This document shows, piece by piece, positions 3,963 to 35,680 of a DNA stretch of 64,000 nt. Position 1 is the stretch's first letter. Each line of letters starts with the position of its first letter. The notes under the pieces were generated by a model. It did no database searches and was not told where the DNA came from. It was given only the letters and a program-made list of their open reading frames with translations. This DNA comes from Candidatus Bathyarchaeia archaeon (GTDB lineage: Archaea > Thermoproteota > Bathyarchaeia > 40CM-2-53-6). The DNA is taken from NCBI GenBank assembly GCA_050012795.1, contig JBEKGM010000005.1:21574-85573 (forward strand), given 5' to 3'. The position numbers were made by a program, and so were the translations under genes.

Positions 3963-5399
3963 ATGTCGCGATCATCAGACGTCCATCATTCGATAGGGAA
4001 TGAGTATCGCATTGAGACGGATAGTTTGGGCGAGGTCAGGGTTCCAGTCGATAAGCTGTGGGGAGCCCAGACGCAACGTTCCCTTGAGTACTTCAGCATT
4101 GGAGAGGATTTGATTCCGCGCGAGATGATTCCGGCTTATGCTATTTTGAAGATAGCCGCGGCTAATGTCAATTCCAAAATGGGATACCTCAAACAGGAAC
4201 AACGAGATCTCATAGTTCGCGCTTGCGACGAGATTTTGGAAGGAAAGCATCAAGATCAATTTCCCTTACACGTTTGGATGACGGGGAGCGGCACTCAGTT
4301 CAACATGAACGTGAACGAAGTGATTTCGAACCGCTGCTGCCAATTAGCTGGAAGTCCACTTGGGAGTAAGACCCCCGTGCACCCTAATGATCACGTGAAC
4401 ATGTCGCAGTCATCAAACGACACATTTCCATCCGCGATGTACGTCGCAGCAGCTAAAGGCGTAAGAGAACAGCTAATGCCCGCGGTGAAACAGCTGCGCG
4501 ATTCTCTGAACGCGAAATCAACCGAATGGAACGGGATTATCAAGATCGGACGCACTCACATGCAGGACGCTACCCCCATTACACTAGGACAGGAATTTTC
4601 CGGCTACGTCGGAATGTTAGATGATAACTTGAATCGCTTAGATGATAGCTTGAAGCATGTTTACCGATTATCGCTGGGTGGAACCGCAGTTGGAACCGGA
4701 ATTAACGCGCCTCCGGGATTTGACGTGGAGGTCGCGGCTGAAATCGCGAAGTTGACCGGGTTACCTTTCGTCACGGCTCCGAACAAGTTCACCGTACAAG
4801 GAGCACATGACGCGCTCGTTATGCTCAGTGGCACGTTGAAGACGCTGGCTACATCCCTGTACAAGATCGCAGACGATATTCGCATACTGAGTTGTGGACC
4901 ACGCTGCGGTTTTCATGAACTCGATATTCCAACCAACGAACCTGGTTCATCCATCATGCCGGGAAAGGTCAACCCCACGCAGTGTGAAGCATTGACGATG
5001 ATTGCAGTGCAGGTTATCGGTAACGATGTTGCAGTAACCTTGGGTGGAGGGGGCGGCCACTTGGAAATGAACGTTTACAAACCGCTCATAATTCTGAACA
5101 TAATGCAATCGATTCGAATCATGACTGATGGCTGCAACAACTTTCGGTTGTTTTTGGTGGAAGGTATGCAACCTAACAGAAAACAGATCGCTAACTTCCT
5201 CGAGCGCTCCCTTATGCTCGTGACTGCTCTTAGCCCGATAATTGGTTATGATAAGGCATCAAAGGTGGCTCAGTACGCCCTTGAGAACGATTTGACCCTC
5301 AAGCAAGCCGCGGTAAGACTAGGTCACATTTCAGAAGCAGAATTCGACCGGGTTGTTGATCCGGCGAAGATGGTCCACCCATATGTCGCTAAGGACTGA
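3963..5399 (+). CDS. fumC: fumarate hydratase class II
   Basis: [19 protein letters not shown] signature, with length and overall pattern of the class II fumarase/aspartase family. ATG at 3963 (MSRSSDV...) fits better than TTG at 3891. Confidence 0.93.
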
Positions 5400-6350: not shown

Positions 6351-7415
6351 TTAACTAGCTTTCACTTCAGCCAGGGGTACATAATCGCAGATTGCACTAG
6401 GCTTCTCAAGAATACGGTTGATTGTTATTTCTCCAATAATCCTGCAGTACTTGTTTATTTGGCCCAGGTTCAAGACTATGCTTCTGAGGCTGACGGCAGT
6501 GTTCACGTCCTTAACGTACATTAACACTTTCTGGGTGAGGCGCCTCTCTTCACTTTCTGAAGTCTCCACCCTCTCGACCGAATCGTTAGAGATCTGAATG
6601 TCTGAAGCCAGAAGCGCCTTCATGCTGAGTTCTGAAGTCTTCATAACTTCGTTGGCGTACTTGCCCACCTCATTAAGGATTGAATCACTTACAGCTTCCT
6701 CGTCCTTCAACGCGATGACTTCGTTCGCAATATTCTCCGCTGAATCCGCCATCTCCTCAAGCGTCTTCGCTACAACCCTGTTCCCCGGAATATGGAGTGG
6801 TGATTCAATACCAATCCTCGTGCCAACACTCCTGTCCCTGATTGCGAGTAGCAGCTGGCGAACAATTAGCCAATAAATCCTATCCGACTCCTCCTCCATG
6901 TGGCCAACTTCCACCGCTAGGTCGGGTCTCCGCTCCACTAAGGCCTTGATAGAGACGTCTAGCATTGAGGAGAGTATGATGTGCAGCCGGCGCATCAGTC
7001 CATATATTGGAAATCGAGTTGGGTCAACGAAACTCTGCAGCGTGACTTGGCGGAGCGTCTGCTCCACGATGCTCAATCCGGTTAACCGCTGCGTCGTGGC
7101 TCGAATCTCATCGAGGTGAACTTTCTTCAATTCGTCTTTGGCAGCGATCTGGATGGTGTCATGGCCAAGAATGTAATTTGCCGTAATTACTCGGGTTAGG
7201 AGGTTGGTTGAGTTGCAGAGGTCAGCGTTTACGACGCAGTTCTTTACCTCTTCGCTCTTATGCTCCGTGCCAGGGATAAGTTTGAGGGAGCCATCATCTT
7301 CACGTTTTATGGAAACAATGTCTCCTGCTTTGAGCTTAACATCCTCGACCCATTCTCGTGGCAGTGATACTGTAAGGGTGGAATATCCGACTCTCTGGAC
7401 TTTCCTAGCTTCCAA
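6351..7415 (-). CDS. AbrB/SpoVT-domain plus PhoU-like-domain regulator (archaeal PhoU-type), paralog 1
   Basis: N-terminus LEARKVQRVGYSTLTVSLPREWV (AbrB-like swapped hairpin), followed by helical PhoU-like repeats. It aligns along its whole length with the ORF at 14954-16048. The TTG at 7415 matches the paralog's N-terminus; the track start is 7445. Confidence 0.8.
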   Translation of the reverse strand: MEARKVQRVGYSTLTVSLPREWVEDVKLKAGDIVSIKREDDGSLKLIPGTEHKSEEVKNCVVNADLCNSTNLLTRVITANYILGHDTIQIAAKDELKKVHLDEIRATTQRLTGLSIVEQTLRQVTLQSFVDPTRFPIYGLMRRLHIILSSMLDVSIKALVERRPDLAVEVGHMEEESDRIYWLIVRQLLLAIRDRSVGTRIGIESPLHIPGNRVVAKTLEEMADSAENIANEVIALKDEEAVSDSILNEVGKYANEVMKTSELSMKALLASDIQISNDSVERVETSESEERRLTQKVLMYVKDVNTAVSLRSIVLNLGQINKYCRIIGEITINRILEKPSAICDYVPLAEVKAS

Positions 7416-7526
7416 GCTAAGCACGAAGGAATATAGTTTAAGCACTAGAATATAGCTTTCAGTACTTGGTCCCGGAATTCAAACTAGAAGCCTTCGAGCA
7501 TAGAGAATGCGTGCCGATTCTTCACT

Positions 7527-12608: not shown

Positions 12609-13385
12609 CTATTGCGGGATTGGCACAGCATTCGCGACGGCCATGTCCATGTAAGTGTACTTCCTGAGATCCGCAACCTGTTTTAGAGTTAACCTCGAAC
12701 ATGCAAACCCCCAATGGAATGAGATCCAGTCGCCAGGCTTCAAATTGTTCATGAAGCTTCGGCCGTTGACTCGTGAGATTACTCTTGCATGGGCGGGTTG
12801 GCCGAAGGATAGAAGCCCATCTCTTCTCTGAATGGGTTCGTATTCAACCGTCAAATTGCCATCCTTATCCGAGGAGAGAACGTTTCCCCAGGATATTCGA
12901 CACTTATCCATCAACTCTCCAACCTGATCATCACGTCCCGCAGCATTCGCAAATGCGTCCGGTACAGTACCCATGGTTGAGAACGCGTTGAAGACATGGA
13001 GCGCGTGATGCGGAAATGTTGCGAACGGCCTTGATTCGAATAACCTCTTGATATGTTCCTTAGGGAATTTTCGCTCCAATCTTTCTCTAAGGTGTTCGTA
13101 GAATCCAGCCCGAGGAATCTTATCGAGTAGGTCATTGCCGATCCAGTAGGCCTCTACAACTCGATAATCGAAAGTCTCTAAGCCCAGGCTTTGGGCGATG
13201 AATCTCAAGTATGGTTGAGCACCTTTGAATGCTTCGAGCGCTTTGAGAAGCTCCTTGCTTCGCTTGTTCGTTAGGCAAGCCTCAAGCAGGACTTCGTTTT
13301 CGTCAGGGCCACAATATCCGAGACGGTTCGGCATGAAACTGTGCCGGGCAGCTAGGACGGCTCCGTCGTCCTTTCCTGAACTCAC
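12609..13385 (-). CDS. conserved hypothetical protein (258 aa), immediately downstream of hypC
   Basis: Long ORF whose GTG start lies 1 nt after the hypC stop. Notable motifs are LGYCGPDEN, FPHHALHVFNAF and SFHWGFACS. It has no HypD motifs (no GPGCPVC). Confidence 0.7.
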   Translation of the reverse strand: MSSGKDDGAVLAARHSFMPNRLGYCGPDENEVLLEACLTNKRSKELLKALEAFKGAQPYLRFIAQSLGLETFDYRVVEAYWIGNDLLDKIPRAGFYEHLRERLERKFPKEHIKRLFESRPFATFPHHALHVFNAFSTMGTVPDAFANAAGRDDQVGELMDKCRISWGNVLSSDKDGNLTVEYEPIQRRDGLLSFGQPAHARVISRVNGRSFMNNLKPGDWISFHWGFACSRLTLKQVADLRKYTYMDMAVANAVPIPQ

Positions 13386-13765: not shown

Positions 13766-14449
13766 ATGGCAAAACGGACAGAGATCGTTACTTCTTCGGA
13801 GGATGAAGTGTTCGATATCGAATTAGAAGCGGACATCCTGAAGGCGAATAGGCAGTTAGCTCTGGAAAATCATGCTAAGCTGAAGGAGAACGATATCACT
13901 GCGATAGATGTAATGGGATCGGTGGGTTCAGGAAAAACATCCCTGATCAAAGCCATCGTTTCCCTCCTTAAGGCGACTCATCGAATAGCCGTGATTGAAG
14001 GCGATGTTACAACAACGATCGATGCAGACATCATCGCCTCAGAAGGTGTTCCTACGGTGCAAGTGAACACGGGTAAAGAATGCCATCTTGATGCTAACCT
14101 CATAAAGAAAGCACTCGCGCGGATGCAATTGTCCAAATTGGATCTAATCTTCATCGAGAATGTCGGTAACCTAATTTGCCCGGCAGAGTTCCCACTCGGG
14201 TCGGATAAGAGACTCGTTGTGATCAGCGTCACTGAAGGCCCATACATGGTTGTCAAGCATCCGATGATGTTCCATGAGGCGAATTCCGTGGCGATAAACA
14301 AGGTTGATTTGGCCGATGCAATGGGAGTTGATCCCTCTAACCTGAAGGGGGATATCTCTAGGCTAAACCCTAAAGCGACGGTCGTGTCCACTGACTGCAG
14401 ACACATGGTGGGTATCCGGGAAGTGATTCGCAGCCTGGGGTTAGCGTAA
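13766..14449 (+). CDS. hypB: hydrogenase nickel-incorporation GTPase HypB
   Basis: GSVGSGKTSLI P-loop, ENVGNLICPAEF metal/switch motif and NKVDL. Confidence 0.9.
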   Translation: MAKRTEIVTSSEDEVFDIELEADILKANRQLALENHAKLKENDITAIDVMGSVGSGKTSLIKAIVSLLKATHRIAVIEGDVTTTIDADIIASEGVPTVQVNTGKECHLDANLIKKALARMQLSKLDLIFIENVGNLICPAEFPLGSDKRLVVISVTEGPYMVVKHPMMFHEANSVAINKVDLADAMGVDPSNLKGDISRLNPKATVVSTDCRHMVGIREVIRSLGLA

Positions 14450-14468
14450 AGTCTAGAGATGGAGACGG

Positions 14469-14852
14469 ATGCATGAGTTCTCTATAGCAACCTCACTAGT
14501 CGACACGCTCCTAGAATTTGCCCAGAAAAATCAAGCGCAGGGCAAGCTGCTGGAGGTCCACCTAAAAATAGGTAAACTACGAGCAATCTCAATCGAACAG
14601 TTGAAGTTCTCATACCGAGTCCTGGCAAAAGACCAGTTCCTTAGCGGGTCCCGATTGATAGTCGAAGAGACTCCAGCCCTACTCCATTGCCCCAAATGTG
14701 GCTTCAGTAAGAATTTTGAGGTTGCAGATGACTCATACCACTTTGCACTTCCAAGCCTATCCTGCCCAAAATGTGGAGCGACCGTAGATCTCGAAGGCGG
14801 AGACGAGGTTGTGATTACCAAGGTCCGCATTAAGGCTCCCTCAAAGAAATGA
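14469..14852 (+). CDS. hypA: hydrogenase nickel-insertion protein HypA
   Basis: MHEFSIA N-terminal Ni site and two CPKCG zinc motifs. Confidence 0.9.
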   Translation: MHEFSIATSLVDTLLEFAQKNQAQGKLLEVHLKIGKLRAISIEQLKFSYRVLAKDQFLSGSRLIVEETPALLHCPKCGFSKNFEVADDSYHFALPSLSCPKCGATVDLEGGDEVVITKVRIKAPSKK

Positions 14853-14953: not shown

Positions 14954-16048
14954 TTGGAGATCAGAAAAGTCCAACGCGTTGGACATTCCACGCTTACCGT
15001 CTCTCTTCCCAGCGACTGGGTTAGACAAGTGGGGCTTAAACAAGGAGGAGTAGTGACGCTTCGACTTTCCGAATTTGGAGAGTTGATCGTGACTCCTGGG
15101 AGTGAGCTTGAAGGAGAGGAGACTACAATTTGCAAGATCAACGCAGATGCCTGTAAGGATGGAACGGCGCTCGGGCGAATCATCACGGGGAACTATATTC
15201 TTGGTCGAGATACGATTATTGTCTCCTCCGAAGAGGGATTGACGGCGGAACAGACAACTGAGATCCGTGACTCAACCCATAGGCTGAGCGGGTTAGGTAT
15301 TGTTGATCAATCACAGAACGAGACGATTATTCAGTGTTTTCTTGACCCATCCAAGTTCTCTATCACCAGTCTCTTGTCCCGATTGTATAAGGTAGTGGTG
15401 TCGATGCTTGAGACTTCGATGCAGGCCCTAATGGATCAGAAATTCTCACTCGCGTTACAAGTGTTGGAGCTTGAAGGTGAAGCCGATAGACTATACTGGT
15501 TGATCCTGCGTCAAATCTTCCGTGCAATATCTAAGATACCACTGTCGCGTCACGCCGGTATTGAATCCGCCACAAACGCTGTTGGTTACCGAGCAGTGTC
15601 AAAATACCTCGAGGAGATAGCTGATTGCAGCGAATCAATAGCTAATCAAATTCTTAGCATAGCTGACGAAAACCAAACCCAATCCACCGCCATCATTAAC
15701 GAAATCTGCAAGACGGGAACAGAGGCGCTGGAGATCTGTAAAGGAGCCATGGATTCACTCTTCATGTTGGACAATGACCTTGCCAATCGAATCATCGCGA
15801 AGTGTGAGCGGTTTGAAAAGCTTGAAAGGGATTTAACAGAACAAGTCGTTTCTTCAGTTCCGAATCGTAAGACAGCTGTTGCGCTCAGAGGCGTAGTTTG
15901 GAATCTTACTGAAATCTCCCGATCAGCTAAGATGATCTGTGAAGTCGCCATCAACCGGTATCTGGAAGACAACACCGAGGTCTGCCGCTTCTGGAAGGAG
16001 CGGAAGAGCGGGGGAGAAATCCAATACCTAAAGAAACTAGTAGTCTGA
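14954..16048 (+). CDS. AbrB/SpoVT-domain plus PhoU-like-domain regulator, paralog 2
   Basis: MEIRKVQRVGHSTLTVSLPSDWV... collinear with the ORF at 6351-7415. By eye about 40% of positions are identical. Confidence 0.8.
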   Translation: MEIRKVQRVGHSTLTVSLPSDWVRQVGLKQGGVVTLRLSEFGELIVTPGSELEGEETTICKINADACKDGTALGRIITGNYILGRDTIIVSSEEGLTAEQTTEIRDSTHRLSGLGIVDQSQNETIIQCFLDPSKFSITSLLSRLYKVVVSMLETSMQALMDQKFSLALQVLELEGEADRLYWLILRQIFRAISKIPLSRHAGIESATNAVGYRAVSKYLEEIADCSESIANQILSIADENQTQSTAIINEICKTGTEALEICKGAMDSLFMLDNDLANRIIAKCERFEKLERDLTEQVVSSVPNRKTAVALRGVVWNLTEISRSAKMICEVAINRYLEDNTEVCRFWKERKSGGEIQYLKKLVV

Positions 16049-17493
16049 GACCTTTTTTTGAGCCGAAATCACTCGCAATCGTAGGCGCCTCAGAGACCCG
16101 GAATAGGATAGGTTACGTTCTAGCAGAGATTATGCTTGCAAACAGGCGACGAGGCATCTTCAAAGGCGAAGTGTACCTCGTTAACCCAAAGCACAAGGAG
16201 ATACTTGGCGAGAAGTGTTATCCGAGGGTCTCCGACCTTCCAAGAATTGCAGAAACAGTACTGGTCGCCATACCGTCGATTCACGTTCCGGAAGCGATAG
16301 ACGACGCTGGTCAGTCAGGTACAGTTGCCGGAATAGTCATATCGTCAGGATTCGCAGAAATCGGAAACATCGCGCTTGAGAAGCGACTAGTCGATTCCGC
16401 CTCAAAGTATAAGCTGCGAATTCTAGGACCAAACTGCCTAGGTGTCTACGATCCATATACCGGAATGGACACCCTGTTCCTCCCTGAAACGAAGCTATTA
16501 TCGGATGGCAGGGAAGTAATCGCGACACCCAGACCAAGGCGTGGATCAGTTTCGTTACTCACCCAGAGTGGCGCATTTGGGTGTGCAGCGCTCGACTATA
16601 TGGCTGGCCCCCACGGGATCGGAATAAGAAGATTTGTCAGCTACGGGAACAGGTGTGACGTGACCGAGAGCGAATTGCTTGAATACTTTGCAAACGATCC
16701 CAAGACTAAGGTCATTCTAACCTACCTGGAAGGATTAGCTAATGGCCGCGAATTCACGGAGAAAGCGAAAGAGATTACGAGAAAGAAACCAGTCGTAGCC
16801 CTGAAGGCGGGTAGATCAGAAGCAGGAAAGAGAGCCGCGGCATCTCACACAGCGGCATTAGCGGGCTCGGACCAAATCTATCAAGGAGCCTTCAGAGAAG
16901 CGGGCATCATAAGAGCTCAGAACGTTGAAGAATTCTTCGACTTCGCTCGTGCATTAGCGATGCAACCCCCAGGGCTCACAAACAATGTCGCAGTCGTGAC
17001 CAACGCGGGTGGTCCAGGAATTATTGCAACAGACGCACTAGAAGGTTCAGGACTAGAAGTTCGGAAATTCCCCAAACGGATAATGTCTAAGTTCTCCGAC
17101 CTCAAAGCTGACAAGAGACTGTTGCCGGTTCTCTCGGGCGCAAATCCGATTGACTTAACTGCAGAAGCAACCAGTCAAATGTTCGCACTGACCTTGTCCA
17201 TTCTGCTGGACGATCCGAGCATAGGAGGAATTGTTCTCATTGCATTGCACCATGCGCCAACTATTCTTGATGACGCTGTAGGAATGATAGCGGAGACCAT
17301 AGGGAAACGTACGAAACCTGTGACTGTTTGCGACATGGGGGAGACAGAAATGGCTGAGACCATGAGAACAATGTTCGAGAAGCGTGGAATCCCGTCATTT
17401 TCTATGCCCGAGCGTGCAGCGCGCGCGCTCTGGGCGCTCATTTACTACGGAAGATATTTGAGAGCTCACAATGTTACTGGTAGAAGAGGATAG
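16045..17493 (+). CDS. acdA: acetyl-CoA synthetase (ADP-forming) alpha subunit / CoA-binding NDP-forming acyl-CoA synthetase; start unresolved
   Basis: The track ORF starts at 16132. The same frame upstream encodes PFFEPKSLAIVGASETRNRIGYVLAEI, the CoA-binding Rossmann N-terminus. The catalytic-His region is AASHTAALAGSD. The only plausible initiator nearby is CTG at 16045, which overlaps the upstream TGA. Confidence 0.85.
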   Translation: MRPFFEPKSLAIVGASETRNRIGYVLAEIMLANRRRGIFKGEVYLVNPKHKEILGEKCYPRVSDLPRIAETVLVAIPSIHVPEAIDDAGQSGTVAGIVISSGFAEIGNIALEKRLVDSASKYKLRILGPNCLGVYDPYTGMDTLFLPETKLLSDGREVIATPRPRRGSVSLLTQSGAFGCAALDYMAGPHGIGIRRFVSYGNRCDVTESELLEYFANDPKTKVILTYLEGLANGREFTEKAKEITRKKPVVALKAGRSEAGKRAAASHTAALAGSDQIYQGAFREAGIIRAQNVEEFFDFARALAMQPPGLTNNVAVVTNAGGPGIIATDALEGSGLEVRKFPKRIMSKFSDLKADKRLLPVLSGANPIDLTAEATSQMFALTLSILLDDPSIGGIVLIALHHAPTILDDAVGMIAETIGKRTKPVTVCDMGETEMAETMRTMFEKRGIPSFSMPERAARALWALIYYGRYLRAHNVTGRRG

Positions 17494-17519
17494 GACGCCC
17501 CTTATCGAACAGGTCAACT

Positions 17520-18638
17520 TTGGAAAACATCAGAGCGTCCAAAATAGATTCACCCGTCACGGACCTTACCGAAGTCGTCCTAGAAAGTAATCTACGCAAG
17601 ATAATGTCCGTGATGGCTGAAAAGCGAGTTCATGAAATCCTGATACCTGACAAAAATCGATGCGGGATGATTATGCTATCGGACACTTTGCGTGCCAGCA
17701 TGGAGACAAAGCCCGAAACATTGGTAACTCATATCCCGGTCATGACGATGGAAACCACAGTGGGCGAAGCTGCTCGCATAATGGCAGATTACAAGATCAG
17801 CACGGTCCCAGTTTCAGACGGGCGTAAGATAACGGGGCAGGTAACCAGCTTGAGTCTCCTCCAATTGTTGAAAGGGAATCTACCAGACCAGAGAATATCC
17901 TCGATCGCCAAGGAAAGCCCTCTAACTATGAACGAAGACGACTCTGCAGCGACAGCCCGAGAACTCTTGTCACGCAAGCGGATCAATAACATTCCCATAA
18001 AACAAGGAGACAAGCTAGTCGGGCTAGTAACATCAACCCAAATTCTCGGGGTGCTGCCGGCTCCTCAGCGGGTTAGTGCAAAGTCGAGAAGCCCAGAAAC
18101 CCGATCCGGCTTGGATTTCCCAGTGAAAGACATTATGGATCCTGACCCCTTGACGTGCCCGCCTCAGACCTCTGCAGAGGAATCGCTGAGCAGAATGCTG
18201 AGCCTTGACAAGACGTGCATACTAGTCGCTCAATGGGACGAACTGCAAGGCATTGCAACTCACGGAGACTTCATCACTCTCCTGGCGGAACCAGAGGAGA
18301 AACCAGAAATCCCAATTTACATCGTTGGTCTCCCTGACGATCCCTTTGAAGCAGAAGTAGCCAAGCAGAAATTCAAGCGAACAATTAATCAACTACACAA
18401 GGTTCTACCCCAGATCCTCGAGGCCAGATCTGTAATCAAGTCAACATCAAAAGCAGCAGGGAAGGAAAAAAGGCGGTATGAAGTAGCAGTGCACATCAAA
18501 ACTCCGAAGAACTCCCATAGTTACGCGGCGAGCGGTTGGGAACTTGCAGAAATCTATGACACAATCACAGACAGGCTTAAACGGTTACTATCACAGAAGG
18601 AGCGACGGAGAAAACAGTACGCCAGAGAAAGTGAGTAA
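17520..18638 (+). CDS. four-CBS-domain protein with C-terminal HPF/RaiA (ribosomal S30AE)-like domain
   Basis: Four CBS-like repeats lie in residues 1-255. The C-terminus IYIVG..FEAEVAKQKFKRTINQLHKVL..RSVIKS..RYEVAVHIKTPKNSHSYAASGWELAEIYDTITDRLKRLLSQKERRRK follows the beta-alpha-beta-beta-beta-alpha pattern of E. coli RaiA/HPF (compare ..[36 protein letters not shown]). Confidence 0.7.
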   Translation: MENIRASKIDSPVTDLTEVVLESNLRKIMSVMAEKRVHEILIPDKNRCGMIMLSDTLRASMETKPETLVTHIPVMTMETTVGEAARIMADYKISTVPVSDGRKITGQVTSLSLLQLLKGNLPDQRISSIAKESPLTMNEDDSAATARELLSRKRINNIPIKQGDKLVGLVTSTQILGVLPAPQRVSAKSRSPETRSGLDFPVKDIMDPDPLTCPPQTSAEESLSRMLSLDKTCILVAQWDELQGIATHGDFITLLAEPEEKPEIPIYIVGLPDDPFEAEVAKQKFKRTINQLHKVLPQILEARSVIKSTSKAAGKEKRRYEVAVHIKTPKNSHSYAASGWELAEIYDTITDRLKRLLSQKERRRKQYARESE

Positions 18639-18676: not shown

Positions 18677-20698
18677 ATGCTACTACCAACACAGATGAGA
18701 CGAATCGAAATCATTGTTCCAAAGAGAAAATTCGAAGACGCCATGCTCTACCTTCGCGAATTGGGCATCGTCGAGTTGTTGGACGTAAAGGAGATGATCA
18801 AGGGATATGGCGAAGGTGTCTCCCCTACCGCAGTATCCGATCGTCTCTATCGGCTAACGACTCTTGAATCAAAGATAAACTCGATAATTACAGCTCTTGG
18901 ACTCATCTCGCTACCAGGAGTCCAACCTACAATTGTCGACGCCCGCATGTCTGATGAACAGATTGTGGAGTCAGAGCGAAAGATAGCTGAAATCGAACAG
19001 AAAGTTACGTCTACGACGAATGAAGCAGAGGCACTGAAATCTCTCATCAATTACGCCGAACGACAACTCAAGCTAAGTATCGAGGAAATTGCTAAAATCG
19101 AAAACGTAAACTCACCGGAAGGCCGCAACAAACTTGAGGAAATAGTGAGCGGCATCTTTCAAACTCTGAAACCGTCGGAACTGAAGTTTGCTGAACCATT
19201 GAGTCAACTGATTGAAGAGAAGGGACTTGAGGACGCCGTTGTAAATGACATAACTAACAACGTGGCAAAATTACTCTCAACCAAACGAAGTGAGAGCGCG
19301 ATAGCTGACGCGGTCACACAGACTCTCGGCTTGAAAATGAAAGCAATGGTCAGAAGCAAGCGACTTTCATACGAAGCCACAAGCCGAATCGAGGAGGCTA
19401 AGAAACGGCTATCAGAACTTAATCATGAGCTCGATGAGGTAAAACGAGCTGATGGACAGTATCTCTTAGTTCAGCGGGAGATCGTGGGAGCAGAGCGATC
19501 ATTTGAACAGGCGAAAGGGCTTTGTGGGAAAACCGAATCAACATACATGATCGAAGGCTGGATACCCACAGCAAAGGTTTCACCCGTCACTGCTCAATTG
19601 AAGAAGATGTGCGAGGACGAAGTGATAATTAGAAGTTGGCCGAGTAAGAATAGTCCAACGAGTCTTCATAACCCTAAGAGCGTCGCAATTTTCCAAAAAT
19701 TAACGGTGGGATTTGGCATCCCTAAGAGTGATGAAGTTGATCCTACCGTGCTATGGCTCATCACTTACCCGATTTTCTTCGGATTCATGTTCGGCGACGT
19801 CGGAAACGGGATTGTTGTCATAATAATCTCAAGCATCATTTACATGTACAAACGAAGAGGCCTGGTGATACCCGACATAGCCTACGGGGGCATGGGTGGA
19901 GTGTTCAACATGGTAATCCAGGGCTCCGGGCTTCTAATCTTCAGCGGCGCCGCTTCACTCGTAGTAGGATTCCTCTATGGCACAGTCTTCGGAAATCTAG
20001 AATGGTTCAGAATACTCACTGGTTTACCCGGACCCTTATGGTTCGAGCCATTCGACAACATTCGACTGATGCTCAGATTGTCCATCACAATCGGAGTGAT
20101 CCACATCATGTCAGGACTCATCCTGGACATTTTCAATAAAGCGTACGTCAAAGATTATCGTGAGTTAATCTCAGGTCCCCTCGTCTGGCTGTGGTTCTAC
20201 GGCGCATTTGGCATAACGCTGCTTCAATACGGACTCAGATTCCCCAACTACCTATTCAACCCAACCAACAGCGTCGACATTTTCCTGAGGATAGGAGTCC
20301 CCCTCATCGCAATGATCGCCCTCAAGGCGTGGGCTGAAGGGCCTATGGGAATGATGCATGCGTTCGAATCGTTACTTGCATCGTTATCGCATACCATATC
20401 GTACGTTCGAATTCTCGCCATGAAGCTAATTGAAGATGTCTTCTATCACCTCTTCAACGGTGTCCTAATTTTCTTCTTAGCATGGGCAACGGTGGCTGGT
20501 GACGTGATAGGGTACACCCTGTTTGGAGCATTGACGGTGGTCCTAATCTTCATCCTAGAAACCGCATTCGTCTTCATGCAATCGCTTCGACTCCACTGGG
20601 TCGAATGGTTCCTCAAGTTCTACTCAGGTAGCGGGACCGAGTTCAAACCGTACGCCGCAGATAGAACCTACACGAGAGTAAGGGCCGGAATCAACTGA
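18677..20698 (+). CDS. atpI: V/A-type ATP synthase subunit I (a-subunit)
   Basis: 673 aa with an N-terminal soluble coiled-coil domain (MRRIEIIVPKRKFEDAMLYLRELGIVEL) and C-terminal multi-TM region containing SYVRILAMKL and LRLHWVEWF motifs. Confidence 0.9.
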   Translation: MLLPTQMRRIEIIVPKRKFEDAMLYLRELGIVELLDVKEMIKGYGEGVSPTAVSDRLYRLTTLESKINSIITALGLISLPGVQPTIVDARMSDEQIVESERKIAEIEQKVTSTTNEAEALKSLINYAERQLKLSIEEIAKIENVNSPEGRNKLEEIVSGIFQTLKPSELKFAEPLSQLIEEKGLEDAVVNDITNNVAKLLSTKRSESAIADAVTQTLGLKMKAMVRSKRLSYEATSRIEEAKKRLSELNHELDEVKRADGQYLLVQREIVGAERSFEQAKGLCGKTESTYMIEGWIPTAKVSPVTAQLKKMCEDEVIIRSWPSKNSPTSLHNPKSVAIFQKLTVGFGIPKSDEVDPTVLWLITYPIFFGFMFGDVGNGIVVIIISSIIYMYKRRGLVIPDIAYGGMGGVFNMVIQGSGLLIFSGAASLVVGFLYGTVFGNLEWFRILTGLPGPLWFEPFDNIRLMLRLSITIGVIHIMSGLILDIFNKAYVKDYRELISGPLVWLWFYGAFGITLLQYGLRFPNYLFNPTNSVDIFLRIGVPLIAMIALKAWAEGPMGMMHAFESLLASLSHTISYVRILAMKLIEDVFYHLFNGVLIFFLAWATVAGDVIGYTLFGALTVVLIFILETAFVFMQSLRLHWVEWFLKFYSGSGTEFKPYAADRTYTRVRAGIN

Positions 20699-33949: not shown

Positions 33950-35680
33950 TTGAAAATTAAACTCTTTGTTTCTGGCCTATTTCTAGTTCTGATTCTGGGA
34001 ATTCTCGCCCCGCACGTCTCAGCTGCTGCATCCCCGGCTACTTCGCCTTCGGGAGTTGGAATTGAGATTCAAAGAACTATCTCAGTGGGACCATTTGGGG
34101 TTATTCACATCAGTGACGCCTTCAACGTAACGAATACCGGAACGGGTTCAAGATCTTATCTTGATTTCGGATTTCTTAAGCAGTATCAGAACAACTTCTA
34201 TTACGTCTCAGCTCAGGATAATCTTGGCAGAGCGTTAACGATTGAAGTAAACGTAAATTCAACATCTGACTTTTACTGGCTACGAGTCCATTTTGCTCAG
34301 GAACTAGGCGCGGGCAGGACATACAAGTTCACCGTTACCTCCGTATTCAACAATCTCATCAGTGTGGTGGGAACAGGATTCGAATACAACTTCACGGCTG
34401 CTCCAGTACTCACGCAGGACGCCCAAGTCGCGAACGTAACCCTGCTTGCTTCGCAAGATTCCTCTTTTGTCACAATACCGAACTCCACTTACGTGTCGAC
34501 TCACGTGAATGGATTTCCGGCCTTGGTGAACACTTATAGGCCTTGGAGGGCCTACTCCATGATGACATTCTACGGGCCTTTTCGATCTGTAACTCAACAG
34601 ATAATTGACCTGATTTCAGCGAAACGCGACATAACAATTGGAAGAGACGGGACGCTGACTGTGACGGACAGCTACGCGTTGTTCAACCCGTCTATAGCGC
34701 TCACTACTCTCTCCCTCACTCTCCCCGATGGAGCGAACAACATTATGGCATATGACCCAGTGGGTGCGATGTGGACTTCTCCTCAGAATCCGGGATCACC
34801 CTACCAAGTCTCTGTCACTCCAAGGTACGGCTCGTTCAAGGGCAACGAATGGTTCAACTTCACCTTAACATACAATTTACCGCCATCAGAATATCTCAAG
34901 CAGACCAGTTGGTGGGGCGGATACAACCTCACAATGCCATTGTTCAACGACGACGAAGACCTGCTAATACCGCAGGCGACTATCAGAATCATTGCGCCTG
35001 GCGGAGTGTCGTTGGGAGATCCTAAGCTGCCTTCACAATCACCCATCACCCCAGACTTCAATGTGAGCGCAGATTACCGAACGATCAAGATACGGGATGT
35101 TACTAGTCTGAACAATCTGACGTTCGGAATGGCTGTTAACTATCTACCCTTCTGGTCTGCCGTTCGAGTACTCCCCTGGATCTTCATGCTGGAAGTAATT
35201 GCTTTCGCAGCGGTCATAGTGAACAAATATAGGCGGGGTCCAGAACTCGCGGTCCCCATCCCCGTAGAACGACTCAGAGAATTCGTCAGCCTATACGACG
35301 AGAGAATCGCCCTCTCCAGGGAATTAATCGCTATGGAGGAAGACGTGAACAGAGGCAGCCTCGTTAAGCATGAGTTCAGAAGAAGAAGTAAAGTGATCGA
35401 CCTCCGTTTGGATGAGATTAACAAATCACTTATGGAAGTGAAATCGGAGCTGCGTTTGGTAAGTCCGCGATATGATGAGCTGATCCGACGTATTGACAGG
35501 GCGGAAGCGGAATCTGAAGCCTCACGCGCGAGCATAGATCAAGTTCGCAGCCAATACCGCGCTGGCAAGATCACGCGAGAAACATTTGACACAGTAATGA
35601 ATGACATATCCAAACGGATAGACAGAGCAGAGTCAGTCCTAGAGACCATACTCATCACTCTAAGGGAAGAAGCAAGGTAA
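33950..35680 (+). CDS. secreted type I membrane glycoprotein, ribophorin-I/OST1-like topology
   Basis: Signal peptide (LFVSGLFLVLILGILAPHVSA), then about 390 aa of beta-rich ectodomain with many N-x-S/T sequons. One TM follows (VLPWIFMLEVIAFAAVIV), then a cytoplasmic coiled-coil tail of about 155 aa. Confidence 0.7.
   Translation: MKIKLFVSGLFLVLILGILAPHVSAAASPATSPSGVGIEIQRTISVGPFGVIHISDAFNVTNTGTGSRSYLDFGFLKQYQNNFYYVSAQDNLGRALTIEVNVNSTSDFYWLRVHFAQELGAGRTYKFTVTSVFNNLISVVGTGFEYNFTAAPVLTQDAQVANVTLLASQDSSFVTIPNSTYVSTHVNGFPALVNTYRPWRAYSMMTFYGPFRSVTQQIIDLISAKRDITIGRDGTLTVTDSYALFNPSIALTTLSLTLPDGANNIMAYDPVGAMWTSPQNPGSPYQVSVTPRYGSFKGNEWFNFTLTYNLPPSEYLKQTSWWGGYNLTMPLFNDDEDLLIPQATIRIIAPGGVSLGDPKLPSQSPITPDFNVSADYRTIKIRDVTSLNNLTFGMAVNYLPFWSAVRVLPWIFMLEVIAFAAVIVNKYRRGPELAVPIPVERLREFVSLYDERIALSRELIAMEEDVNRGSLVKHEFRRRSKVIDLRLDEINKSLMEVKSELRLVSPRYDELIRRIDRAEAESEASRASIDQVRSQYRAGKITRETFDTVMNDISKRIDRAESVLETILITLREEAR

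Follow-up and report, generated by a model that had tools for sequence, protein, structure and literature searches.

We analyzed a stretch of 64,000 nucleotides from a Candidatus Bathyarchaeia archaeon (contig JBEKGM010000005.1, positions 21,574 to 85,573 of the forward strand, hereafter called the window), and concentrated on one gene located at positions 17520-18638 of its plus strand. This gene has a TTG start codon, a stop codon at 18636-18638, and encodes a 372 amino acid protein in which four CBS domains are followed by a C-terminal domain that resembles the ribosome hibernation factors HPF and RaiA. From the architecture of this protein, its predicted fold, its profile-level homology to HPF, its collinearity with HibA and its archaeal origin, we conclude with a probability of roughly 0.87 that the gene encodes an archaeal ribosome hibernation factor, a Bathyarchaeia ortholog of the one known as HibA, Hib or AHA, and we therefore refer to it below as hibA. 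The open reading frame is not a chance occurrence, since 324 homologs were found at E<=1e-3, most of them 375-390 amino acids long and aligning over their full length with the same layout, and since two independent metagenome contigs encode a protein identical to the one in the window. The start codon was checked against the closest relative (locus L006, 87% identity), which starts at a TTG located eight codons further 5'. Specifically, comparison of window positions 17502-17522 with L006 positions 3980-4003 showed that the window has TTA where L006 starts with TTG, and that one codon (aga) is also absent from the window. Thus, the TTG at 17520 is the first usable start, which leaves the window protein with an N-terminus that is 7 residues shorter than that of L006.

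Pfam placed PF00571 (CBS) in four stretches of the window protein (E=7.6e-26) with no further Pfam family matched, and NCBIfam returned generic CBS-containing families. An AlphaFold2 model of the full-length protein, built from 48 homologs with a mean predicted local distance difference test score (pLDDT) of 83.6, also contains four CBS units within residues ~21-258. The reading frame and its four CBS repeats, as described in an initial annotation of this DNA that was made from the letters alone, are thus borne out. Pfam matches and secondary structure in the model place CBS1 at 17580-17714 (residues ~21-65) and CBS2 at 17715-17885 (residues ~66-122). CBS3, at 17886-18062 (residues ~123-181), contains the best Pfam CBS stretch (residues 127-179) together with a conserved motif, and is followed by an 18-residue loop, PQRVSAKSRSPETRSGLD, at 18063-18116 (residues 182-199), that was delimited by a MAFFT alignment, by pLDDT and by conservation. 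CBS4, at 18117-18293 (residues ~200-258), was recognized from Pfam, the model and its G-I-A-T-x-x-D motif. The HPF/RaiA-like domain, which was located by model topology, Foldseek, profile searches and conservation, occupies 18312-18596 (residues ~265-359), and the protein terminates with a basic tail, KERRRKQYARESE, at 18597-18635 (residues 360-372) that extends the last helix with low model confidence.

The C-terminal region of the AlphaFold2 model is composed of a strand at residues 266-269, a helix at 275-295, three strands at 301-310, 318-327 and 332-339, and a final helix at 342-371, which is the order of secondary structure elements found in HPF and RaiA. Modelling of the C-terminal 111 residues on their own (pLDDT 78.7) again gave the b-a-b-b-b-a order. 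When this C-terminal model was compared to the PDB with Foldseek, the top 34 matches were all bacterial or chloroplast HPF, RaiA, YfiA, pY or RafH proteins (E from 2.5e-5, probability 1.00, TM 0.5-0.74, ~100 aligned columns), with the first unrelated protein appearing at rank 35. The models support the assignment of an HPF/RaiA fold to the C-terminal domain of the window protein, and the fold comparison that the initial annotation had proposed thus came out as it had anticipated. The Foldseek search with the full-length model is dominated by the CBS tetrad, which matches SriA/B, SriD, MJ1225, AMPK-gamma and Dri at E=1e-15 to 1e-12; these matches are driven by the tetrad and were rejected as evidence on the C-terminus.

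Relatedness of the C-terminal domain to HPF is also observed at the level of sequence profiles. A C-terminal profile, searched exhaustively against 1.84 billion cluster representatives, returned 162 matches at E<=1e-3, many of them proteins of 365-410 amino acids that carry the domain at their C-terminus and others standalone proteins of ~100-140 amino acids. When 28 family C-termini were scanned singly, 20 matched TIGR00741 (HPF/YfiA) below its threshold (best E=1.8e-4) and four matched PF02482 (best E=0.0037), while no NCBIfam family other than TIGR00741 was matched by more than two. A broader C-terminal profile, called A3, was built from 68 of the matches to cluster representatives. In a search of the PDB with A3, 13 of the 15 top matches are HPF/RaiA proteins, including three constructs of Staphylococcus aureus HPF (E=9.4e-5, 2.9e-4 and 3.7e-4) and Escherichia coli HPF (E=6.3e-4 and 3.1e-3), with profile positions 19-109 aligned to HPF positions 15-103. 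This likeness to the bacterial and plastid proteins (RaiA, also called YfiA or pY, and the N-terminal domain of long HPF; PF02482, TIGR00741, COG1544), which have the same fold, extends over nearly the whole domain and takes in the basic tail as well as the last helix, which is of the D-x-L-x-R-L type. The by-eye alignment to RaiA in the initial annotation, covering b3-b4-a2, the D-x-L-K-R-L helix and the basic tail, was reproduced in the hidden Markov model (HMM) alignment to S. aureus HPF, and its central claim of an HPF/RaiA-like domain fused to a CBS tetrad in an archaeon is upheld by the 34 structural matches, the profile similarity and the 20 TIGR00741 matches. There are also differences from the bacterial and plastid proteins, in that the window domain falls below curated thresholds, is fused to a CBS tetrad, a module with which HibA and AHA contact the large subunit, and lacks the dimerization domain of long HPF.

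Proteins with this architecture have recently been described in archaea by three groups. Madru et al. (Nat Commun 2026, PMC13324472) observed HibA on hibernating Pyrococcus abyssi 70S ribosomes by cryo-electron microscopy (cryo-EM), with members that include P. abyssi PAB0961 (PDB 9SR9-9SRF, 9T7H), Thermococcus barophilus TERMP_00697 and Thermococcus kodakarensis TK1186. P. abyssi HibA is composed of a four-CBS module (residues 1-269) and an HPF/RaiA-like b-a-b-b-b-a domain (residues 270-392), with the latter occupying the 30S mRNA/tRNA channel and the former found at three positions on the 50S subunit, in one of which loop 190-207 is inserted at the peptidyl-transferase centre (PTC). HibA also inhibits translation in vitro, and the family is reported in 47% of archaeal genomes (PMC13324472). 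Haloferax volcanii AHA (HVO_2384), described independently by Souza et al. (bioRxiv 2026, PMC12934967), has the same layout, binds two AMP at its CBS3/CBS4 junction and has 3,160 homologs in 17 phyla. Finally, Nissley et al. 2026 (PMC13004131) noted that 42% of archaeal species have a 'SriA-HPF/RaiA fusion', which they call Hib. Across genomes, Sri and Hib are anti-correlated (PMC13324472, PMC12934967, PMC13004131). Support for the role of the family comes from cryo-EM and deletion phenotypes, from the inhibition of translation in vitro and from AMP binding, with 70S ribosome binding, occlusion of the mRNA/tRNA sites and translation inhibition demonstrated only for P. abyssi and T. barophilus HibA and for H. 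volcanii AHA (PMC13324472, PMC12934967). In light of these three 2025-2026 papers, which report the fusion in 42-47% of archaeal species, the description of HPF as a bacterial solution in the initial annotation is outdated.

The window protein is collinear with these characterized members. A MAFFT alignment of the window protein, 57 diverse full-length representatives, seven Bathyarchaeia homologs and five Thermococcales HibA proteins places P. abyssi residues 190-207 (the PTC loop) opposite window residues 182-199 without any insertion or deletion, P. abyssi residue 270 opposite 262, and P. abyssi residue 387 opposite 370. A full-length profile of the window family also aligns with P. abyssi HibA (PDB 9sr9_H) in one stretch (E=3.8e-18, residues 29-370 against 19-371). 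Although the architecture is shared with P. abyssi HibA, the loop sequences are unrelated, the C-terminal domain of the window protein is more compact (111 versus ~125 amino acids), and the hosts of HibA are hyperthermophilic whereas the window derives from mesophilic soil Bathyarchaeia. The published description of AHA, an N-terminal AMPK-gamma-like CBS tetrad followed by a C-terminal HPF domain, applies to the window protein as well; its CBS model likewise matches AMPK-gamma, MJ1225, Sri and Dri, which agrees with the structural relationships published for AHA and Hib (PMC12934967, PMC13004131), and the CBS3/CBS4 motifs at the AMP sites of AHA are conserved. The structurally closest relatives of the tetrad are SriA-D/ARC-A/P of Methanosarcina and Methanolobus and Dri of Pyrobaculum (9znf_4, 9zng_7 and 9e7f_3, E~1e-15 to 1e-13 with Foldseek), which lack an HPF domain, unlike the window protein with its HPF-like C-terminus. 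A further connection is that the C-terminal profile of the window family reaches, at E~1e-22, proteins with the CBS4+HPF layout from Nitrososphaerales (Nitrosocosmicus, Nitrososphaeraceae), a lineage that is among the seeds of the AHA survey (PMC12934967). Some orthologs have also already been named 'CBS domain-containing protein/ribosome-associated translation inhibitor RaiA' by the JGI pipeline. As a separate observation, the PDB entry that best matches the window protein in sequence is 9l96_a (also 9l98, 9l9c and 9l9v), a 406 amino acid 'CBS domain-containing protein' with an acidic halophile-like composition, with an alignment that covers only the CBS part and, of the C-terminal domain, the first strand. 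Its lower-case chain name suggests a ribosome complex, and it is possibly a haloarchaeal HibA/AHA; no paper on 9l96 was found in a literature search.

Several observations weigh against the assignment to HibA. The full-length E-value to 9sr9_H is carried largely by the CBS part, and the MAFFT alignment gives identities to P. abyssi HibA of just 17% for the CBS module and 16% for the C-terminal domain. When the C-terminal profile was compared by hhalign with the P. abyssi HibA C-terminus, taken either alone or within a Thermococcales profile (Neff 1.6), the probability was 8-14% (P=0.002-0.004) over ~45 columns. The single-sequence search with PF02482 that the initial annotation had suggested gave no match to the window protein even at E<=10, and TIGR00741 scored only E=0.1 with its last 118 residues, reaching 13.1 bits where the cutoff is 40.9 and covering positions 17-101 of the 102 in the profile. 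A C-terminal profile built from close relatives only (A2) found nothing relevant in the PDB. HibA and AHA entries appear in neither Foldseek result list, the library of which ends 2026-04-08, presumably before their entry. The Bathyarchaeia ortholog group consists of uncharacterized members of a known family, and no explicit statement that Bathyarchaeia carry HibA/AHA was found in the published surveys or their supplements, the genome lists of which mention Bathyarchaeia 149 times without a presence column.

With no PF02482 match and a TIGR00741 score of 13.1 bits, the window protein lies outside these curated bacterial models, yet the profile comparisons argue that it is homologous to HPF, a relationship that is visible only through profiles and fold. 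A weak link between its C-terminus and that of Thermococcales HibA is expected, because Souza et al. reported limited sensitivity for searches seeded in one phylum and used nine phylum-specific seeds (PMC12934967), and because Madru et al. admitted divergent members to the family on the basis of their architecture and predicted fold (PMC13324472). A homolog search from P. abyssi HibA found only Thermococcales among the best 120 matches, and thus gave no bridging diversity. In pre-specified single tests the A3 HMM scored 9-11 bits with Thermococcales HibA C-termini (P=2-6e-5) and 23.8 bits with S. aureus HPF.

Conservation, computed across 48 Bathyarchaeia homologs, is highest in the HPF-like domain, where the mean column conservation is 0.79 and 47% of the columns reach at least 0.9, as compared to means of 0.63-0.68 for CBS1-3. 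Such high conservation would fit the binding of invariant rRNA. The loop at residues 182-199, which occupies the position of residues 190-207 of P. abyssi HibA, the loop that is inserted at the PTC, is predicted to be disordered (pLDDT 54-63), with R184, S189 and L198 at least 92% conserved; this combination would fit a segment that becomes ordered only on the ribosome. Motifs of the G-x-x-T/S-x-x-D type are canonical and conserved in CBS3 and CBS4, with the ribose-phosphate motifs best kept in CBS3 (G168, T171 and S172 invariant or nearly so) and in CBS4 (T247 invariant, D250 85%). By analogy, CBS3 and CBS4 likely form an adenylate site, since adenylates bind to HibA and AHA at this same junction.

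The cryo-EM structures available for P. abyssi HibA and H. volcanii AHA allow a mechanism to be proposed for the window protein by homology. Its HPF/RaiA-like domain (~265-359) and basic tail would bind the small subunit in the mRNA/tRNA channel, across the A and P sites, in the manner of bacterial HPF. The N-terminal CBS tetrad would dock on the large subunit, with the CBS3 loop (182-199) probably reaching into the peptidyl-transferase centre. With the HPF-like domain on the small subunit and the tetrad on the large one, a single polypeptide would clamp the empty 70S ribosome, blocking mRNA and tRNA binding and protecting the ribosome when cells starve or are in stationary phase. AMP, ADP or ATP probably binds at the CBS3/CBS4 junction.

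How far such binding would control the ribosome is a question of mechanism within the HibA assignment and not of another identity. The proposal that AMP/ATP occupancy of the tetrad directly switches ribosome binding, so that hibernation is gated by energy charge, draws on the conserved ribose-phosphate motifs of CBS3 and CBS4, on the preference of the P. abyssi CBS module for AMP (Kd 12 uM) over ADP (65 uM) and ATP (113 uM) (PMC13324472), on the two AMP at the CBS3/4 junction of AHA, and on a report that ATP mobilizes the factor in the unrelated two-protein ARC system. However, the distribution of ribosome-bound states of P. abyssi HibA is unchanged by AMP or ATP, and native HibA-ribosome complexes carried no nucleotide, with the authors unable to conclude that ATP acts directly in release (PMC13324472). 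We consider direct gating possible but doubtful for the window protein; nucleotide gating of ribosome binding is still a hypothesis, even for the characterized members.

Two readings would give the protein a different function or target. One is that of a CBS-tetrad metabolic or transcriptional regulator (HhpR/CM-3 or AMPK-gamma-like CM-6), with a C-terminal domain that serves not the ribosome but the adjacent enzyme related to ADP-forming acetyl-CoA synthetase (ACD) or ATPase subunit I. The short distances of 26 and 38 nt that separate hibA from the ACD-like gene and from atpI, a gene order that is conserved in the soil Bathyarchaeia clade, and the existence of CBS tetrads with non-ribosomal roles (PMC13324472, PMC12934967) are in line with such a regulator. 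This is nevertheless very improbable given that the C-terminus has a predicted HPF fold for which every top structural match is a ribosome hibernation factor, that it shows profile similarity to HPF, that it is more conserved than any other region of the protein, as expected of an rRNA-binding domain, and that the synteny is missing from 38 of the 52 loci that bear the same protein family. The other reading keeps a role on the ribosome but replaces the 70S clamp with either a 100S-type dimerizing factor, like bacterial long HPF, or a factor confined to the small subunit, like standalone HPF or Sri/ARC. Dimerization is contradicted by the absence of a Pfam match in the window protein to the C-terminal dimerization domain of long HPF (PF16321), as only a short basic tail follows the last helix and the chain stops 13 residues past the helix core. 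An HPF-like domain alone would suffice for 30S binding, and standalone HPF-like proteins of 100-140 amino acids do occur among the relatives, but the window protein retains a full, conserved CBS tetrad and the equivalent of the PTC loop, as in 70S-bound HibA and AHA. We regard either variant as highly unlikely.

The host of the gene is archaeal and belongs to Bathyarchaeia, with archaeal markers in the window that include Topo VI A and B, RIO1, TrmB, a KaiC-like ATPase and A-ATPase subunit I. Relatives of hibA were found at 64 species-level GTDB loci, nearly all of them in Bathyarchaeia, including Hecatellales, with the closest locus in a metagenome-assembled genome (MAG) from Danish soil (87% identity). 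Three GTDB contigs that carry hibA bear bacterial MAG labels (Methylomirabilota, Acidiferrales and Acidoferrum): L008 (DATKOK010000102.1), L018 (DATIYC010000034.1) and L033 (DASQZS010000182.1). L008 and L018 also have the full archaeal synteny, and all three are probably mis-binned Bathyarchaeia contigs.

Upstream of hibA on the same strand is an ACD-like CoA ligase (16132-17493; CoA_binding_2, Succ_CoA_lig and Ligase_CoA_2) with a stop 26 nt before hibA, and downstream is a gene for A/V-type ATPase subunit I (V_ATPase_I, 18677-20698; PF01496, E=2.9e-38) that starts 38 nt after the hibA stop. These gaps allow co-transcription of the ACD-like gene, hibA and atpI. The order HypB-HypA-PhoU-like-ACD-like-hibA-atpI-TrmB is kept in relatives with at least 49% HibA identity and the whole synteny is absent in Bathyarchaeia with 31-44% identity, with atpI directly downstream of hibA in 14 of the 52 loci that have enough flank. 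Thus, the position between ACD and A-ATPase subunit I given in the initial annotation is correct, while the 'energy-metabolism context' that it saw there is a clade-specific gene order and not a feature of the family. Synteny that is confined to one Bathyarchaeia clade is weak functional evidence, and genomic context was for this reason rejected as a family-wide indication of function.

Other features of the surrounding DNA were noted. The subunit I gene is solitary, with hibA upstream, TrmB downstream and no adjacent A-ATPase subunits; the usual archaeal arrangement of A-ATPase subunit genes is an atp operon. A hydrogenase-maturation cluster adjoins the block, with HypB (cobW family) and HypA at 13766-14852 on the plus strand and a DUF6390 protein at 12609-13385 on the minus strand; in relatives HypC adjoins DUF6390, and the arrangement is conserved in the same clade. 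There are also two paralogous 364 amino acid proteins with an AbrB/MazE-type N-terminal domain and a PhoU domain (6351-7445, minus strand, and 14954-16048, plus strand), one of which is part of the conserved block upstream of hibA. A 576 amino acid reading frame at 33950-35680 (plus strand) matches Ribophorin_I (PF04597, E=5.6e-16, residues 247-354 against profile positions 253-358 of 437), which constitutes a eukaryote-type oligosaccharyltransferase-subunit-like protein in a Bathyarchaeia genome. No paralogs of the window protein or further hibernation factors were found within the window, and across its whole 64 kb ARAGORN found no tRNA genes and no Rfam family reached its gathering score. 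A scan for Sigma-70 promoters and intrinsic terminators, signals that are not applicable to archaea, gave only shuffle-level results.

The fusion of a CBS tetrad to HPF was correctly deduced in the initial annotation, although it is already known, and the window protein has the canonical architecture with no deviating feature. The deduction would have been striking before late 2025, after which the family was described by the three groups cited above. Because both PF02482 and TIGR00741 miss the window protein, it is annotated only as a 'CBS domain-containing protein'; the initial annotation recognized the HPF fusion correctly from raw sequence.

Two more speculative readings concern evolution and regulation. 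The C-terminal domain of the Bathyarchaeia/Nitrososphaerales-type HibA might represent a slowly evolving, compact and near-bacterial form of HPF that could serve as a bridging set for the origin of the archaeal domain, which has been ascribed both to an early transfer from Bacteria (Madru et al., PMC13324472) and to inheritance from LUCA, the last universal common ancestor (Souza et al., PMC12934967). We think this rather unlikely. The higher score to bacterial HPF than to Thermococcales HibA could equally reflect fast evolution in Thermococcales; if the reading is true, such near-bacterial domains would help decide between bacterial transfer and LUCA inheritance. In addition, hibA of the soil clade may be co-transcribed with the solitary A-ATPase subunit I gene and the ACD-like gene, a weaker reading that, if true, would couple hibernation to energy conservation, either physically or in regulation.

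Until 2024-2026, ribosome hibernation in archaea had been an open question. Among the archaeal hibernation factors now known, the CBS-tetrad-HPF fusion is the most widespread, and it joins bacterial HPF to energy sensing of the AMPK-gamma type. As the window gene and its relatives illustrate, this family is present with its canonical architecture across soil Bathyarchaeia, an abundant uncultured lineage in which dormancy is ecologically important.

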